Of a DNA stretch of 30,333 bases, positions 542 to 23,587 are shown piece by piece (position 1 is the stretch's first letter; every line of letters begins with the position of its first letter). The DNA is taken from the UHGV virus genome UHGV-0122274. The stretch is one strand, 5' to 3'. The position numbers and the translations under genes were made by a program. The stretch is from a virus. The notes beneath the pieces are model-generated. The model saw only the letters and a list, made by a program, of their open reading frames with translations. It made no database searches and was not told where the DNA came from.

Positions 542-904
542 ATGTTAAAGCTATTTGCAAAGTACACCTCGATTGGTGTGCTGAACACACTTATACACTG
601 GGTGGTTTTTGGTGTTTGTATCTATGCCGCGCATACCAATCAGGCTCTGGCAAACTTCGCAGGTTTTGTTGTGGCTGTGAGTTTTAGCTTCTTCGCGAAT
701 GCAAAATTCACATTCAAAGCATCAACTACAACGATGCGCTACATGTTATATGTCGGGTTCATGGGAACACTGAGTGCAACTGTTGGATGGGCTGCTGATA
801 GATGTTCACTTCCTCCAATTGTCACTCTTGTCACCTTCTCCGCCATCAGCCTGGTGTGCGGTTTCGTCTATTCAAAGTTCATTGTCTTTAGGAATTCAAA
901 ATGA
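542..904 (+). CDS. gtrA: GtrA, bactoprenol-linked glucose translocase (flippase) of the O-antigen glucosylation cassette
   Basis: 120-aa small hydrophobic protein with about 4 predicted TM segments, directly upstream of and overlapping a GT2 glucosyltransferase; classic gtrA position and size. Confidence 0.85.
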
Positions 905-1818
905 AAATTTCGCTTGTTGTTCCGGTCTTCAATGAGGAGGCCGCAATACCAATCTTCTACAAAACGGTGCGAGAATTCGACAAGTTAAAGCAGTATGAAG
1001 TTGAAATAGTTTTCATCAATGATGGCAGTAAAGACGCAACAGAATCAATTATCAACGCGCTTGCGATGTCAGATCCTCTTGTAGTTTCACTGTCATTCAC
1101 AAGGAATTTTGGTAAAGAGCCAGCTTTGTTTGCTGGACTTGAACATGCAACTGGCAATGCAGTAATACCTATAGATGTTGATCTTCAGGACCCAATCGAG
1201 GTTATCCCGCACCTGATAGAGAAATGGCAGTCAGGATCTGACATGGTTCTTGCTAAGCGATCAGAACGTTCTACTGATAGTCTATTAAAGCGGAAAACAG
1301 CGGAGTGGTTCTACAAACTACATAACAAAATCAGCAATCCAAAGATTGAGGAAAATGTTGGTGATTTTCGGCTGATGAGCCGCGATGTTGTCGAAAACAT
1401 AAAGAGAATGCCAGAACGAAACCTGTTCATGAAAGGCGTGTTGAGTTGGGTTGGTGGCAAGACAGACGTCGTTGAATATGTCCGTGCTGAACGTGTTGCG
1501 GGAGATTCAAAGTTCAATGGCTGGAAATTATGGAACCTAGCACTTGAAGGTATTACCAGCTTTTCAACTTTTCCTCTCAAAATATGGACATATATAGGTT
1601 TGTTCGTCGCCGGTACAGCGTTCACGTATGGCTCGTGGATGATTATTGATACGTTAGCATTTGGTAACCCCGTTAGAGGTTATCCGTCAATTCTGGTATC
1701 GATTCTTTTCCTTGGAGGCATCCAACTTATTGGAATCGGTATTCTTGGTGAATATGTTGGCCGTATATATATAGAAACAAAAAAACGACCAAAATATTTT
1801 TTAAAGGATAAAAAATGA
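901..1818 (+). CDS. gtrB: GtrB, bactoprenol glucosyltransferase (GT2 family)
   Basis: 305 aa; N-terminal [13 protein letters not shown]...INDGSKD GT2 signature, DxD-like IDVDLQD, C-terminal pair of TM helices; start overlaps gtrA stop. Confidence 0.9.
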
Positions 1819-3299
1819 ATTTAAAAAAAGAAATAAACGCCAATAGCATTAAGATAATGGTTATAGCATTTATAACGTCTTTACTCGTTTATTTTCAAAA
1901 CCTAACCAACTTTTCTATATCAATAGACACAGAGTACGCTTTTTTTTCATGGCCTAATGAAGGTATTTTATGGTGGATTTCTCTAGGGCGGTGGGGTTCA
2001 GCAATAATCGACTATATATTTAGGGTAAACGCCTACACGCCGGGGTTTACAACTCTCGTAATGTTAGCGCTTAATGTTATAACTGCTTTCTTATTAGCTG
2101 TAAACACGTTTAAGCTCCTTAGTACAAGGATAATGTTTGCTATTATTTTTGTATCATTTCCGCAATTTGCTTATCAAGCTGAGTTTGCTCAGCAGTCCGA
2201 TACCGTTGCATTAGGTCAACTTCTCGCATGTATATCAGGTCTGATACTTTATTCTTCAATCTTTGGAAAAGACAAAGTAAATATAAAACTTCTATTTATT
2301 GGGGTTTTAGTGCTTACCTTTTCACTAGGAATATATCAATCACTAATCTCTTTCCCTGTCGTTGTATTTTTAATGCAATTCATTGCAAAATGTAATGAAG
2401 AATGCAAAAAGAGAATCATTAAATGTTTTTCAATATTTTCGCTTGCAATAATACTTGCTACATCCATTTATTATATAATAGTTTTTTTAAGTCATGCTAT
2501 ATTCAACGTAACCACACCCACATATCTTAAAGACACCTTTCACTGGCTAAAAGAACCTGTATACGAAACGCTTCAAAGGGTGAGTGAGGTTGTGATATCA
2601 ACACTCACAGGTGATTATTATTTTGGGGCTAGCATTATTCCGTTCATGGTGGTTCCCGTTGTTTTTCTTTCCTATAGTCAGGTAATCAATCATGATAAAA
2701 ATATTATAAAATTAATATCAATATTAACATTAGCAATCAGCCCCTTCTTTGTGGTTATCGGACTCGGGGGCATACAGGGCCCCAGAGTTTTGCTTGGGTT
2801 ATCTGTAACATTCGCTTTTCTATTTGCTTTCGCTATAGAAAAATTAAAAACATGCAGCAAAGTAAAAAGCACACTGTCAGCCCTAATTTGCACAATTGTA
2901 GTTTACTATAGTGCATCAACAGTAAATATGCTCTTTTACTCTGATGCAATGGCAAGAGAGATAGATTCCAACATAACTAACAGGATATTGTCCCAACTAC
3001 AAAGTAAGTATGGTAACTTTAATCCGTCAACGGATGTCGTAAGTTTCATCGGTGCGTATCCCACATACAACCCTTGGAAAAAAAATAATTCTGACACCTT
3101 TGGTGAGTCAATGTTTAGTTTTTCAGGAGGAGATCCTCGTAGAATTACAAAATATGCAGCAATGATAAGTGGGTTTTCTTTAAATTTACACATTGCAAGT
3201 AACGACGAAAAAGAAAAATTAAAACTCATTCCGTCATGGCCTGACGCGGACTCAATAACAGTTATGAATGGAATTTATTTCATTAAGCTAGGAGATTAA
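1815..3299 (+). CDS. Serotype-specific O-antigen glucosyltransferase (GtrC / Gtr-type family), polytopic membrane protein
   Basis: 494-aa highly hydrophobic protein, third gene of the gtr operon with ATGA overlap to gtrB; markedly AT-rich coding sequence. Confidence 0.75.
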
Positions 3300-17829: not shown

Positions 17830-19329
17830 TTAAGTTCTCCGTGCGATGGGCCTGATTGGGGCTGGTATCTTTTTCTCTTTTGGCTTTTTGATGTCGCGCA
17901 TCATTTTTGCGAAGCGGCGCATCATGTATGCATAGCGAACGGCGGATAGCACGTCGTCGTTAAGCTTGACGATTTTCCCGTTTTCATCACGGTGATAGAG
18001 GCGGAACTCCTCAAAGAATGGCTCACAGGTGTTGAATACTTTGAAGCGACCGTCGAGCATCATGTCTCGCAATTCAGTGATGCCAGGCTCAACAGCGTTA
18101 CCGCCATCAGGCCATGTCGCATGCTCCTGCAACATCATAAAACCAGCATCTGCATACTGCCCTTTGAGCTGCTCACCGCCGCCCTTCTCGTGCTGGTTTC
18201 CGTCATGAGGCCATGCTGTTGGCACTTTATGCGCCCATGATTTAACAGCTCCCCATGCCTGAACGGCTGTTTTTTCTTTCGCCTTCCACACGCGTGAAAC
18301 GTAGATTGTGTCTGCGTCCTTATCCCACCAAAGCTGAACCTGCGCCTGCGGGTGATCCCATCCGAAATCCATCCCGCCAATTACGTAGAAGTGATCAGGA
18401 CACTCGAACGGCTGACACTTAATCGTCTCTTCCGGTATCTGGAAGATTCGCCCGCTACCCATCGTAGGAATACCGCGAGCACGCGCCTCTCTCTCATGCT
18501 CGGGATAGGATGCGATGATTTGCTCTTTCTGTTCGTCTGTGTAGTGCTCAGCGTCATAGATGGTCATGTTGACCACTTTCTGCGACTTGCTGGGATTCTT
18601 CAGGAACTTGGTAACAACGTCAGACATCCCCATCAGCGGGGTAAACGTCAGAATTGAGAATTGCCCGTATTTGTTGGTACGGGTAAGCCCTTCGCCATAA
18701 ATGCTGTATGGTGGCTCTTCGTCAAACCACACGCCGTGGATTGTGTCACCCTGCCAGCGAGCGCGGCCTTGCGAGTATGGTTTGAAGTAGCAGATTGAAA
18801 TGCCATCTTCAACGCCATCAGCCGTGTGATGCTTAACCAGAAGATGATCAACAAGGTTCGGAAAGAAAGGAGACTTCTTCCAGCTAATGATGTCCTCTTT
18901 CGGTATGGAACCGTAGCCCGGCTCATCATTCTCTTCAATACGACCGCACAGGATGCGTTGAGTCGTTTTGGTTACCGTCTCGTTTGTCTCGCCGCCAATC
19001 CAGAAGACAACAGGCTCATAGAAACGCTTCCCCTTCCACTCACCGCCATATTTACCATCAGCAGGATAGCCTTTTGTGCCCGGATAACGCCCTGTAAGGT
19101 GAAACGCGACTTCAGCAGCACCAGTAAATGACTTACCAAGCTGGTTACCAGCCATAAAACATCGCTCTGGATAGTCATGCCCGGCGTCGATGAACTCACG
19201 CTGTTTGCTGTATGGCGTAAATTCATATAGCAGGTGTGTGTTCCGGTAGTTCTCTTCTTCTTCGAGTAGCTCGAGCAATTCGATTTGCTCTTCATCGCTC
19301 AGGTTATCAAGAATCGCGTCCAGTTCCAC
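17830..19329 (-). CDS. Terminase large subunit, P22 gp2-like
   Basis: 499 aa (same as P22 gp2), [37 protein letters not shown]..., ATPase motif region GNQLGKSF; overlaps the terS 3' end. Confidence 0.9.
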
Positions 19330-19795
19330 GGTTGAATAGCTCCTTGATACGAGAGCGCCGCTTATCGCGATCTCCCTTATCAGGTGTCACGTCTTCAACT
19401 TGCGACTGCTCTTTGAGGCCCAAATCACGGGCGATAATGTTAGCGTTGAGAAGGTCAGCGGCTGCGCCAGAGAATTTCTGGTCGTAGATGACCTGCTCTG
19501 CTCGCGTAACGACTTCAGATAAATCTTCTCTCAGGCGATATGTGCGCCATGTTTCAAGCGTCACATCAATGAACAGAGTGAGACCTGTAATAGTCATCGC
19601 TCGCATCTTGGCGATAGGCTCTTGTATCACTTCACCCTGATACGAGAACGCCTTCATCTCCCATAGCGGGTTAGCTTCTACCCACTCGAAGTATTCACAA
19701 CAAGCAGCCCACAGCGCCTCAGGCGATTCGAATTTAGGGTTTCGCCCATGACTACTGCGGGCCTCCCAAAATCGGTTGCCCTTTGGTGCTGCCAT
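19307..19795 (-). CDS. Terminase small subunit, P22 gp3-like
   Basis: 162 aa; [50 protein letters not shown]... matches P22 gp3 from memory. Confidence 0.85.
19501..19528 (-). other. Candidate pac (headful packaging initiation) site inside terS
   Basis: The - strand sequence GAAGATTTATCTGAAGTCGTTACGCGAG, encoding EDLSEVVTR of terS, matches the P22 pac sequence as I recall it; in P22 pac lies inside gene 3. Confidence 0.45.
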
Positions 19796-19830
19796 ATTTA
19801 TCTCACTTAGTTGTTATTTCAGGTTGAGCA

Positions 19831-20073
19831 TCATGCTCCGGTAGTGAACAGGTCTAACGCTTCCTTCGATTTACGCACCGCTTCGATAGTGCGGGTCGTG
19901 ATATCTGAATTAGCGCCGCCTGACTGGAAGTGAATTTTGAATAGCTCAAGCTTCAGTTCGTCAGTGCCAATAAACTGAAATGCTTCCTCTGCGGCTGCGT
20001 TCTGGTTCATGACCAGTTTGTAAATCTCTAACTGGAATTTCTGTTCTTCAGTCATGGGAATAATCTCTGCCAT
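19831..20073 (-). CDS. Hypothetical protein (80 aa) immediately upstream of terS
   Basis: ATG at 20073 preceded by a GGAG RBS; no family recognised by eye. Confidence 0.55.
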   Translation of the reverse strand: MAEIIPMTEEQKFQLEIYKLVMNQNAAAEEAFQFIGTDELKLELFKIHFQSGGANSDITTRTIEAVRKSKEALDLFTTGA

Positions 20074-20376
20074 TGTTGGCTCCGTTTATCCGTTAAAAGG
20101 GATATCAGTTAAGTTATCCCGTGTAGGGTATAAGCCATTGTCGAGACCACTCATTGAATGGCCTCTGCAATAACCGATGTCTTTCCATCAGTCCGCCACC
20201 ACAAAGAATCTTTTTTGCCATAAGGCAGGAGGTTCATCTTTCAGTGGCTGCCAGTGTTATTTCCCCACTTACTGGCTTGGGTTGTATCGCTGTACTGCCG
20301 TTAATTAGTGACCAGAAATTAACTCCGGTTTCATTATCAAGCCAACCCGTAGATAGGCTTTGTAATGCCTACATGG

Positions 20377-20856
20377 TTAAATGATTTGCCAGTCTTCAGC
20401 CATCAGGTCGCCAATGGATGGAACCCATGTAGCAAGGAGGTTCTGTGAGTTTTTCAATACAAGCGTGTCATTGAAAGTTGGCTCGCCAACATATTCGCCA
20501 AAGCCATAACCCAACGCAGACGCTAATTTTTCCCCTTTCACGAGATAAACAAACTGGTCTTTCCCATTCCATCCTGCCCGCTGCAAACTTTTGCCCTGTT
20601 TTAACGCTTCCATGGCAAGGCCGAAACTTAGTCCTGATACCGGACGATAAGCCTTTTCGAATACTTCTTTTGGACTCCAGCTAACGTAGCCATCAAAGCG
20701 ATCGGTGTTAGGTTTTCCGCCATCCAGATATTCAACCAGATAGCCTTCGTCCTCGCCGTTTTCTCCGACAGGAAGCTGCCAGCCACGAAAATCGTTATAT
20801 GCCTGTCTCGTCATCGGAAAGGCGTTAATCAGTTTTACGCCAATATGCTGGGTCAT
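20377..20856 (-). CDS. Hypothetical protein (159 aa) downstream of Rz; accessory/moron-position gene
   Basis: Clean ORF in the late-strand orientation directly after a hairpin plus U-tract; C-terminal half carries an ALKQGKSLQRAGWNGKDQFVYLV-type motif reminiscent of small phage DUF-type proteins (unverified). Confidence 0.6.
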   Translation of the reverse strand: MTQHIGVKLINAFPMTRQAYNDFRGWQLPVGENGEDEGYLVEYLDGGKPNTDRFDGYVSWSPKEVFEKAYRPVSGLSFGLAMEALKQGKSLQRAGWNGKDQFVYLVKGEKLASALGYGFGEYVGEPTFNDTLVLKNSQNLLATWVPSIGDLMAEDWQII

Positions 20857-20880
20857 AAAATTACCTATGGAGTTGGGAAT

Positions 20881-20902
20881 AAAAAACCCCGCGAATGCGA
20901 GG
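20881..20902 (-). terminator. Terminator-like hairpin (6-bp stem with one G-U, ATTC loop, U6 tail) between Rz and the 159-aa ORF
   Basis: - strand cctcgc-attc-gcgggg followed by tttttt, about 175 nt after the Rz stop and about 25 nt before the 159-aa ORF start. Confidence 0.4.
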
Positions 20903-21077
20903 CTAAATCCTGGTGTTTGTAATGACTGGCTCTTATCTCAACGCAGCCCCTTACCGCGCGCCAGATGCTCAACTTCAAGCATCAGCAATGAGATGTTTAA
21001 TCTGGATTTACTCCAGAAGTGATCACCACCCTGTCTACAGAGCCAGATGTGAAGGATGATGAGTAAAATTATCGCTA

Positions 21078-21515
21078 TCATCGAAGGCATTGCGTCCTGA
21101 TGTACTCCTGCAGGTAGTTAACCTGCGCGGTTATCCTGTCGATTCCGCTTCGGAGACGGTAATAATTGAGTTCAGCATCTGCTGTAAGTCTTGGGCTTTC
21201 TCCATCGCCCATGCTGCTGGCTCCGGTCGTTGACTTTGCACAGGTGGCGGCGACTTGCAGGCGCTTACGACCAGCAGAAACATCAGCACGGAGACTTTCG
21301 ATAGTCGCGTTAGCATCAGCAAGCTCCTTTGTGTATCTGGCGTCAAGTTCTGCTACATCACGTTGACGCTTCTGCATGTCAGCGATTGTGGATGCGGCCT
21401 TATCGCGCTGCTCTTTGTAGGTGATGGCGTTATCACGGTAATGATTAACAGCCCATAACAGGCAGACGATGATGCAGATAATCAGAGCGGAGATAATCGC
21501 GGTTACTCTGCTCAT
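21078..21515 (-). CDS. Rz: Rz spanin, inner-membrane subunit (i-spanin)
   Basis: N-terminal [34 protein letters not shown] matches lambda Rz, then diverges; contains the embedded +1 frame Rz1; follows R. Confidence 0.8.
21131..21316 (-). CDS. Rz1: Rz1 spanin, outer-membrane lipoprotein subunit (o-spanin), embedded in Rz
   Basis: Embedded ORF with signal peptide [20 protein letters not shown] (lipobox VSAC) followed by a proline-rich mature region [13 protein letters not shown]; start chosen at the internal Met. Confidence 0.65.
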
Positions 21516-22963: not shown

Positions 22964-23587
22964 TTAACGTGTGACCGCATTCAAAATGTTGTCTGCGATT
23001 GACTCTTCCTTGTGGCATTGCACCACCAGAGCGTCATACAGTGGCTTAACAGTGCGTGACCAGGTGGGTTGGGTAAGGTTTGGGATTAGCATCGTTACAG
23101 CGCGATATGCGGCACTTGCTGGCATCCTTGAATAGCCGACTCCTTTGCATCTTCCGCACTCTTTCTCGACAACTCTCCCCCACTGCTCTGTTTTTGCTAT
23201 ATCAACCGCACGGCCTGTACCGTGGCAATCTCTGCATCTTGCCCCCGGCGTCGCGGCACTACGGCAATAATCCGCATAAGCGAATGTTGCGAGCACTTGC
23301 AGTACCTTTGCCTTAGTATTTCCTTCGAGCTTTGCCACACCACGGTATTTCCCCGATACCTTGTGTGCAAATTGCATCAGATAGTTGATAGCCTTTTGTT
23401 TGTCGTTCTGGCTGAGTTCATGCTTACCGCAGAATGCAGCCATTCCGAATCCGGCTTGTGATTGCGCCATCCCCATAGCAGCCATCACATCAGTACCGGA
23501 AAGAGAGTCAGAAGCCGTAGTCCGTGGTGTGTCGCTCATCATCGGGCTTTTTGGCGAATGAAATTTAGCTACGCTTTCGAGTCTCAT
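22964..23587 (-). CDS. Q: Late-gene antiterminator Q (lambda-type)
   Basis: 207 aa, [48 protein letters not shown]...[11 protein letters not shown]...[10 protein letters not shown] (zinc-binding motif); matches lambda Q from memory. Confidence 0.9.

Follow-up and report, generated by a model that had tools for sequence, protein, structure and literature searches.

What does a temperate phage carry between its lysis genes and its terminase genes, and does any of this DNA serve against the defences of the host? The question is raised by the virus genome UHGV-0122274, of which a stretch of 30,333 nucleotides was analyzed (below called the window; coordinates refer to it unless another record is named). 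It is a P22-like (Lederbergvirus-type) genome read on the minus strand. The late genes follow in the order Q, holin, lysozyme, Rz, the interval in question, terS, terL, and portal to tailspike, and the tailspike has the P22 head-binding domain. An annotation made earlier from the sequence alone, the original prediction, described here two open reading frames (ORFs) with about 300 bp of non-coding DNA between them. It treated them as one accessory locus and proposed this locus as the best place in the window to look for an anti-defence function. Both ORFs are present on the minus strand with the boundaries it gave, and the DNA between them is exactly 303 bp long. The elements in question are the following (aa, amino acids):

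20377-20856, minus strand: ORF159, 159 aa, with its stop codon at 20377-20379
20635-20856, minus strand: N-module, residues 1-74 of ORF159; four strands and two helices in the monomer model
20380-20634, minus strand: Tad2 (DUF2829) domain, residues 75-159 of ORF159; Pfam PF11195
20074-20376, minus strand: non-coding gap of 303 bp between ORF159 and ORF80
19831-20073, minus strand: ORF80, 80 aa, DUF2560 (P22 orf80, hkbM of Sf6 and HK620), directly upstream of terS

Our answer, to which we give a probability of about 0.78, is that this interval serves as the cargo slot behind the lysis genes in a P22-like late operon, that it holds one cargo gene, ORF159, coding for a two-module Tad2 sponge, and that ORF80 and the gap belong to the phage backbone.

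The cargo gene and its slot

ORF159 had been left without any assignable function, and this did not survive comparison with known domains. The Pfam family Tad2-like (PF11195) matched it with 76.8 bits against a cut-off of 25 (E 1.9e-21, profile positions 2-73 of 73). A phmmer search of the PDB aligned residues 75-159 without gaps to Tad2 of phage SPO1 (E 1.2e-25, approximately 54% identity) and also found ModTad2 (E 3e-18). The fold predicted for this domain in the monomer model is the same as that of SPO1 Tad2. These matches make ORF159 a strong anti-defence candidate, as had been expected of the locus. The GWNGK motif, noticed earlier as a C-terminal one, is present and lies at residues 95-99, at the start of the C-terminal domain.

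The binding pocket of SPO1 Tad2 (gp34.65; PDB 8SME, 8SMF, 8SMG and 8WJE) is known in detail. Its contacts to 1''-3' gcADPR comprise van der Waals contacts of W25 and W73, polar contacts of N26 and D79, a hydrogen bond of T78 to the adenine, non-polar contacts of I63 and T65, and waters held by N26, D67, H71, W73, S76 and D79 (10.1101/2023.05.01.538930). How much of this pocket is found in ORF159? Mapped through the ungapped phmmer alignment, the contact residues correspond as follows:

SPO1 W25, ORF159 W96: conserved
SPO1 N26, ORF159 N97: conserved
SPO1 W73, ORF159 W144: conserved
SPO1 S76, ORF159 S147: conserved
SPO1 D79, ORF159 D150: conserved
SPO1 I63, ORF159 L134: conservative change
SPO1 T78, ORF159 G149: changed
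SPO1 T65, ORF159 N136: changed
SPO1 D67, ORF159 Q138: changed
SPO1 H71, ORF159 A142: changed

The five conserved residues are invariant or at least 90% conserved among 44 two-domain homologues. The β2-β3 loop of ORF159 is short, of SPO1 length, in contrast to HgmTad2 (AcrIIA7; PDB 8KBI and others), whose long β2-β5 insert binds the cyclic dinucleotides cGG and cGAMP.

By sequence, fold and pocket, the C-terminal domain of ORF159 is a member of the Tad2 family. What is new here is the recognition of a Tad2-family gene in a phage group where it is annotated only as DUF2829. Because the profile match is strong, the main contacts are kept and the loop is short, we consider this domain to be a sponge with 3'cADPR (1''-3' gcADPR) as its most likely ligand, a reading drawn from sequence and model. 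It would assemble into a tetramer and sequester the TIR-made Thoeris signal in pockets between the protomers. The ThsA effector would then never be activated, and the phage would escape abortive infection. SPO1 Tad2, with the same fold and main gcADPR contacts, has 89 aa, stands alone and comes from a lytic Bacillus phage. Unlike it, ORF159 has an extra N-module of 74 aa and four pocket substitutions, and it is coded in the late operon of a temperate enterobacterial phage.

Is this gene a regular part of the late operon or a variable one? We compared 80 IMG/VR loci fetched through ORF80, together with three annotated phage loci and the window. In the 77 loci having both anchors, the distance from Rz to ORF80 ranged from 307 to 1916 bp and the gene content differed. 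Cargo was counted as ORFs of at least 70 aa on the sense strand (the strand of the late transcript), and clustering was restricted to this strand because spurious antisense ORFs confound the grouping. The slot was occupied as follows:

Rha: 31 loci (29 + 2)
Acb4, PF13876: 18 loci
KilA-N: 16 loci (7 + 5 + 3 + 1)
an 85-aa protein: 9 loci
N-module with Tad2 (ORF159 homologue): 7 loci
DUF551: 3 loci
GIY-YIG / T5orf172: 3 loci
Acb2, PF24729: 1 locus
none of these ORFs: 9 loci

The slot is thus a cargo hot spot in which three sponge families are mixed with regulators and nucleases; the Rha, KilA-N, GIY-YIG and DUF551 genes found in it are not known as anti-defence genes. Phage Huey has both the Tad2 fusion and Acb4. 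The ORF159 gene was found in 45 of 5426 complete Escherichia coli genomes, annotated only as DUF2829, and the full interval recurred at near-identity in two of 229 matching phage records, the best being Escherichia phage HZ41 (98%).

The proposal that the junction between Rz and terS is a variable cargo slot is therefore borne out by the relatives. The idea of one accessory locus with two ORFs stands for one of them only: ORF159 is variable cargo (7 of the 77 loci), and ORF80 is not cargo, being nearly invariant backbone with or without ORF159.

The P22-like temperate phages of E. coli, Shigella and Salmonella are much used in phage genetics. That counter-defence genes of the sponge type (Tad2 fusion, Acb4, Acb2) occur in them at a single, predictable post-lysis position makes this slot a genetically tractable place for studying the evasion of Thoeris and CBASS and for mining its unannotated ORFs. 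The single Acb2-type gene (PF24729; locus L018, 348-632) lies beside an unannotated ORF of 95 aa (18-305), and locus L079 has another unannotated ORF of 95 aa. Both 95-aa ORFs are candidates for further anti-defence genes.

ORF80 and the non-coding element

ORF80 matches DUF2560 (PF10834) over the full 72-position profile (147.7 bits, cut-off 25) and is predicted as a four-helix protein; neither its sequence nor its fold points to a function. It is the same gene as P22 orf80 and hkbM of Sf6 and HK620 (99-100% identical), and it had 100% amino-acid identity in 80 of 80 sampled loci, which were sampled through ORF80 itself. The original prediction had named as contrary evidence the finding that both proteins are conserved core components at this position with a structural or packaging role. 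One half of this was found, as ORF80 is conserved at its position; it is not known to have a structural or packaging role. We see in ORF80 a small helical protein under strong constraint, and our best guess is a late-expressed accessory factor that is independent of the terminase type.

In HK97-like siphoviruses only the first 27-28 codons of ORF80 are kept together with the non-coding element (HK97 38,637-39,053; mEp235), so a module boundary runs through ORF80. These remnants lie between a KilA-N gene with a small ORF and the HNH and terminase genes; in HK97 itself the neighbouring HNH gene is gp74.

The gap had been regarded as an unusual feature of the cargo locus. It contains no ORF longer than 35 aa and has stop codons in all six frames, and it proved to be a conserved backbone element rather than a peculiarity of this locus. 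Matches to it, with identities of 80-99%, were found in 207 phage records, and in 92 of these they extend over 80% of its length or more. The carriers include P22 (between rha and orf80), Sf6, HK620, lambdoid siphoviruses such as mEp235 and HK544, and Stx phages. Its core, the 228 bp next to ORF80 (20074-20301), changes hardly at all from one upstream cargo to another and is kept even in cargo-free loci. In many relatives, among them Huey (L001:382-762) and about 18 of the 77 loci, the Acb4 gene is inserted within the element at position ~201-203, which corresponds to 20174-20176 of the window, and splits it into two conserved halves.

If the element is so widespread, then we can ask: Is it kept by selection? 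We read it as non-coding backbone DNA under selective constraint. In the late mRNA it may be a structured part that reaches to the ribosome-binding site of ORF80. Here the core would form a folded segment just upstream of that site. The odds are about even that the gap is instead neutral DNA, either a decayed gene remnant or a recombination linker hitch-hiking with ORF80. The two readings meet on the following evidence.

The diversity of the core is 0.024, about one third of that at third codon positions of ORF80 (0.070), and four-fold sites reach 0.087; this argues against neutrality, although the count of segregating sites did not differ significantly (p 0.085). The element is also retained in cargo-free loci and in the HK97-like siphoviruses which have lost most of ORF80. 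On the other side, it flanks the points where cargo modules are exchanged, and its copies, all at least 80% identical, may just be of recent origin. Small ORFs inside the element (P22 'orf25' is one) show no conservation.

The predicted folding energy was well below that of shuffled controls (sense -98.7 kcal/mol, z -4.65; antisense z -3.46), which speaks against neutral DNA. Covariation lends a structure no support and would suit neutral DNA: in the RNAalifold prediction from 34 copies none of the 57 pairs shows a compensatory change and the covariation term is -0.32, in an alignment whose mean column identity of 98% leaves almost no power. Among one-sided changes, 9 preserve and 7 break pairing in the sense strand, and 6 preserve and 10 break it in the antisense strand. 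Wobble-preserving changes in three hairpins looked suggestive in a post-hoc count, and the full count is only the 9 versus 7 just given. A covariance-model search of 19700-21200 against Rfam 15 found no match at E<=1. If the constrained-element reading is right and the segment is functional, it would be a new lambdoid cis-element of late expression, present in the late operons of both P22-like and HK97-like phages.

Two further identities were considered for the gap and rejected. The small ORFs (35 aa; P22 'orf25') lack conservation, as relatives have frameshifting indels and stops in them and the P22 version diverges after 9 residues. The antisense RNA STnc6030 of BTP1 sits at the tailspike instead.

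A scan for an exact 38-mer of the element in contigs of one genome per species found it only in E. coli and in contigs of metagenome-assembled genomes (MAGs), and added no diversity. The MAG contigs are labelled Bacillota or Collinsella and are probably mis-binned or contaminating phage contigs.

The N-terminal module

What does the other module of ORF159 bring to the sponge? Residues 1-74 have no sequence match in Pfam, NCBIfam or the PDB, while PHROGs families match either the whole ORF159 or the N-module part alone. An exhaustive phmmer search with this 74-residue query in 1.84 billion cluster representatives gave 1551 proteins at E<=1e-3 and 819 at E<=1e-10. The matching proteins are 72-354 aa long, and the module stands in them N-terminally, internally, C-terminally or alone.

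A Pfam scan of the best 150 of these matches identified as partner domains Tad2 (53), PF21825 (35) and PF13876 (20). PF13876 is Acb4, a CBASS sponge (10.1101/2024.12.30.630793), and PF21825 is Sequestin, a 3'cADPR sponge discovered through its fusion to Tad2 and Acb4 (10.1101/2025.07.12.664507). At least 85 rows of the Sequestin homologue table of the latter paper contain the N-module motifs GYLVEY and SWSPK, and its tables include two Lockin homologues with a shorter relative of the module. The text of that paper does not discuss the N-module, which was invisible to its Pfam-based fusion screen because it has no Pfam family.

A profile built from 150 representatives scored 108 bits with gp49 of coliphage N4, 36 bits with a Lockin fusion and 24.8 bits with gp68 of a Pectobacterium phage, and had no match in four negative controls. 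In all, the module is fused to five sponge families (Tad2, Acb4, Sequestin, Lockin and RyR-Tad), and it is present in the model phages N4 and crAssphage. It is thus a recurrent, highly conserved unit common to at least five sponge families.

The nearest known counterpart of the whole protein is N4 gp49 (EF056009, 160 aa), which has the same N-module followed by a PF11195 Tad2 domain (43% full-length identity, E 9e-44). ORF159 shares this architecture with gp49 and with thousands of unstudied proteins. N4 is strictly lytic, and its gene lies in the 'anti-signalling hotspot' of N4-like phages beside the virion RNA polymerase gene, adjoining Acb4 gp48. No experimental test of gp49 was found in the accessible literature. 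In EF056009 (33,632-34,485) gp48 is the PF13876 (Acb4) protein and gp49 the N-module with Tad2; Pfam names PF13876 after 'N4 Gp49', so the numbering or naming is inconsistent between resources.

Fusions of one sponge to another are known as well: Acb4-Tad2 of Pasteurella phage Pm86, Tad2-Sequestin and Sequestin-Acb4 (10.1101/2025.07.12.664507). They likewise join Tad2 to a second small phage module, and sister phages carry Acb4 or Acb2 at the locus of ORF159. ORF159 differs in that its partner module belongs to no Pfam family and has not been recognised as a sponge.

The second counterpart is RyR Tad (gp68 of Pectobacterium phage vB_PatP_CB1). Its N-domain is homologous to residues 1-67 of ORF159 (BLASTP 34%, E 2e-6), and its sponge half is a helical domain of RyR repeats, not Tad2. 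The N-domain has been described as a fold of unknown function that is often encoded alone. In the crystal it is a domain-swapped dimer forming a five-stranded sheet; gcADPR is bound without it, and alone it shows no anti-Thoeris-I activity (10.64898/2026.06.04.730250). The monomer model of the ORF159 N-module is compatible with a swapped dimer of this type.

The module has approximately 18 invariant residues, K8, W26, Y43, N50, Y57 and W60 among them, and aromatic or basic ones are frequent in this set. The motifs RGW and DGGKPN are nearly invariant in the ORF159-type module and absent from the gp68 N-domain, so the negative result with the latter may not transfer.

The alleles at the same locus of phages Huey and Kapi1 (20377-20856 of the window compared with L001:997-1497 and L002:2049-2570) are 95-99% identical to ORF159 in the N-module and only 38-41% in the Tad2 domain, which has longer β2-β3 inserts there. 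This pattern in the sequences suggests that the gene is a domain-level mosaic, in which sponge alleles, and with them possibly specificities, have been exchanged behind a constant N-module.

The N-module is most likely a dimerising brace for sponge oligomers of even number. Such a role fits the even-numbered oligomers of all its partners as well as the gp68 crystal. It may also bind a second ligand, which would fit its autonomy, its conservation and the pattern of sponges fused to sponges. Only tentatively would we go further and call it an undescribed counter-immunity unit, either a sixth domain of the sponge type that binds a new host signal or a universal adaptor by which any sponge could be oligomerised.

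A bolder alternative is that the N-module, and not the Tad2 domain, carries the key activity as a ligand-binding sponge domain for a new signal. We consider this doubtful. The fusion to five sponge families and the occurrence alone speak for it, and guilt-by-fusion logic of the same kind uncovered Sequestin. The module is also more conserved than the Tad2 half in the P22-like alleles, its invariant residues are often aromatic or basic, and two of its motifs are missing from the version that tested negative. Yet that version, the homologous gp68 N-domain, had no anti-Thoeris-I activity alone and looks like a dimerisation element, and high conservation is equally compatible with an obligate protein-protein interface.

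Ligand, expression and the weaker alternatives

The reading of ORF159 as a late-expressed 3'cADPR sponge has several points to answer. Four of the ten SPO1 pocket residues differ (T78, T65, D67, H71), including the one that makes the only hydrogen bond to the adenine. Homologues of Tad2 shift their specificity to His-ADPR, N7-cADPR, cUMP/cCMP and cyclic dinucleotides, and none of the 18 homologues tested in that study has the N-module (10.1101/2025.08.24.671296). The N-terminal extension joins helix α1, around which the Tad2 tetramer is centred, and may affect its assembly. A late-expressed sponge would be unusual, and in the Tad2 paper early expression is argued for. The promoter scan on which late expression partly relies covers only the sigma-70 consensus.

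With such secondary substitutions and such plasticity of the family there is a real chance of a different specificity. That ORF159 is a sponge for another signal, such as His-ADPR (type II Thoeris), N7-cADPR (type IV) or cyclic mono- or dinucleotides, is nevertheless unlikely in our estimation. The wide range of ligands among the 18 tested homologues, the replacement of the adenine-contacting T78 and T65 and of the water-coordinating D67 and H71, and the divergent Huey and Kapi1 domains with their longer inserts, which suggest a swapping of specificity, would all agree with it. Against this, the ORF159 domain at 54% identity is closer to SPO1 Tad2 than to ModTad2 or HgmTad2, the four principal SPO1 contacts are kept, and the insert is short like that of SPO1 Tad2, which bound no cyclic nucleotides. 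We therefore keep 3'cADPR as the likeliest ligand.

When would such a sponge be made? The features around ORF159 that bear on this question are:

22964-23587, minus strand: Q antiterminator, upstream of holin, lysozyme and Rz
21078-21515, minus strand: Rz spanin (Pfam Phage_lysis, E 5.5e-37), the upstream boundary of the locus
20938-21090, minus strand: small hydrophobic ORF, 50 aa, which overlaps the Rz stop codon and precedes the terminator
20904-20885, minus strand: intrinsic-terminator-like hairpin after the lysis cassette, AGCCTCGCATTCGCGGGGTT then TTTTTTATT
19307-19795, minus strand: terS of the P22 gp3 type (Pfam GP3_package, E 3.5e-33), the downstream boundary of the locus

The terminator-like hairpin that had been reported ahead of the locus was found again. 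Hairpin and T-run lie 28 nt upstream of the ORF159 start; the scan of the region gave two such sites, where chance alone would give 1.5. An equivalent hairpin, GCCTCGCAGATGCGGGGCGTTTTTG, follows gene 15 (the Rz gene) of P22 in the same position, so the hairpin is a backbone feature. ORF159 has no terminator other than this upstream one. A consensus scan of 19700-21200 for sigma-70-like promoters found none on the minus strand, which is weak negative evidence.

Since the terminator is immediately upstream, Q further upstream and no promoter was found, late Q-dependent transcription is the parsimonious solution. Q-modified RNA polymerase would read through the post-Rz terminator, and ORF159 would probably be made from Q-antiterminated late transcripts during lytic growth and not in the repressed prophage. 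Moron-like expression from the prophage, which the original prediction had proposed to test, thus finds no support in the layout: ORF159 resembles a moron in its variable presence, and neither a promoter of its own nor a terminator downstream was found for it. The ribosome-binding sites had been called good; this is true of ORF80 (GGAG, 8 nt before the ATG), and the site of ORF159 is only moderate (AGGT). One promoter-like site (TTTACG-16-TAAAAT) lies on the plus strand at 20834-20861, antisense to the 5' end of ORF159; 1.7 such sites were expected.

Could ORF159 and ORF80 work together as a unit of two genes, for example a sponge with its partner? They are adjacent on the same strand and had been flagged together, and this is what recommends the idea. 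ORF80 is present in 80 of 80 sampled loci and ORF159 homologues in a handful; P22, Sf6 and HK620 carry ORF80 without ORF159, and N4 has an ORF159 homologue without ORF80. We regard such a unit as very improbable.

The least probable of all is an AcrIIA7-like anti-CRISPR: homologues in Huey and Louie are labelled 'anti-CRISPR protein' (PQ850609, PQ850616), AcrIIA7 is a DUF2829 protein and there is a weak PDB match (9kzr, 8kbi), but the label goes back to AcrIIA7 and was taken over from a metagenomic screen. In later work AcrIIA7/HgmTad2 was found to be a sponge for gcADPR and cGG, and its anti-Cas9 activity could not be reproduced; E. coli and Salmonella are not known to have type II-A Cas9 systems. 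Two misleading labels are corrected in this way, 'DUF2829' in RefSeq and 'anti-CRISPR' in some phage records.

Two other genes of the window deserve mention. The conserved 50-aa ORF at 20938-21090, overlooked by the original prediction, has no family match in Pfam or NCBIfam. Phages Huey and Kapi1 have near-identical annotated ORFs of 47 aa, that of Kapi1 with a predicted signal peptide. The 50-aa ORF is a backbone feature outside the cargo. At 542-3299 on the plus strand, an O-antigen glucosylation operon of the gtrA-gtrB-gtrC type (Pfam GtrA, GT2, GtrII) adjoins the tailspike gene. This operon, a classic module of lysogenic conversion, is the sole clearly prophage-expressed cargo noticed in the window.

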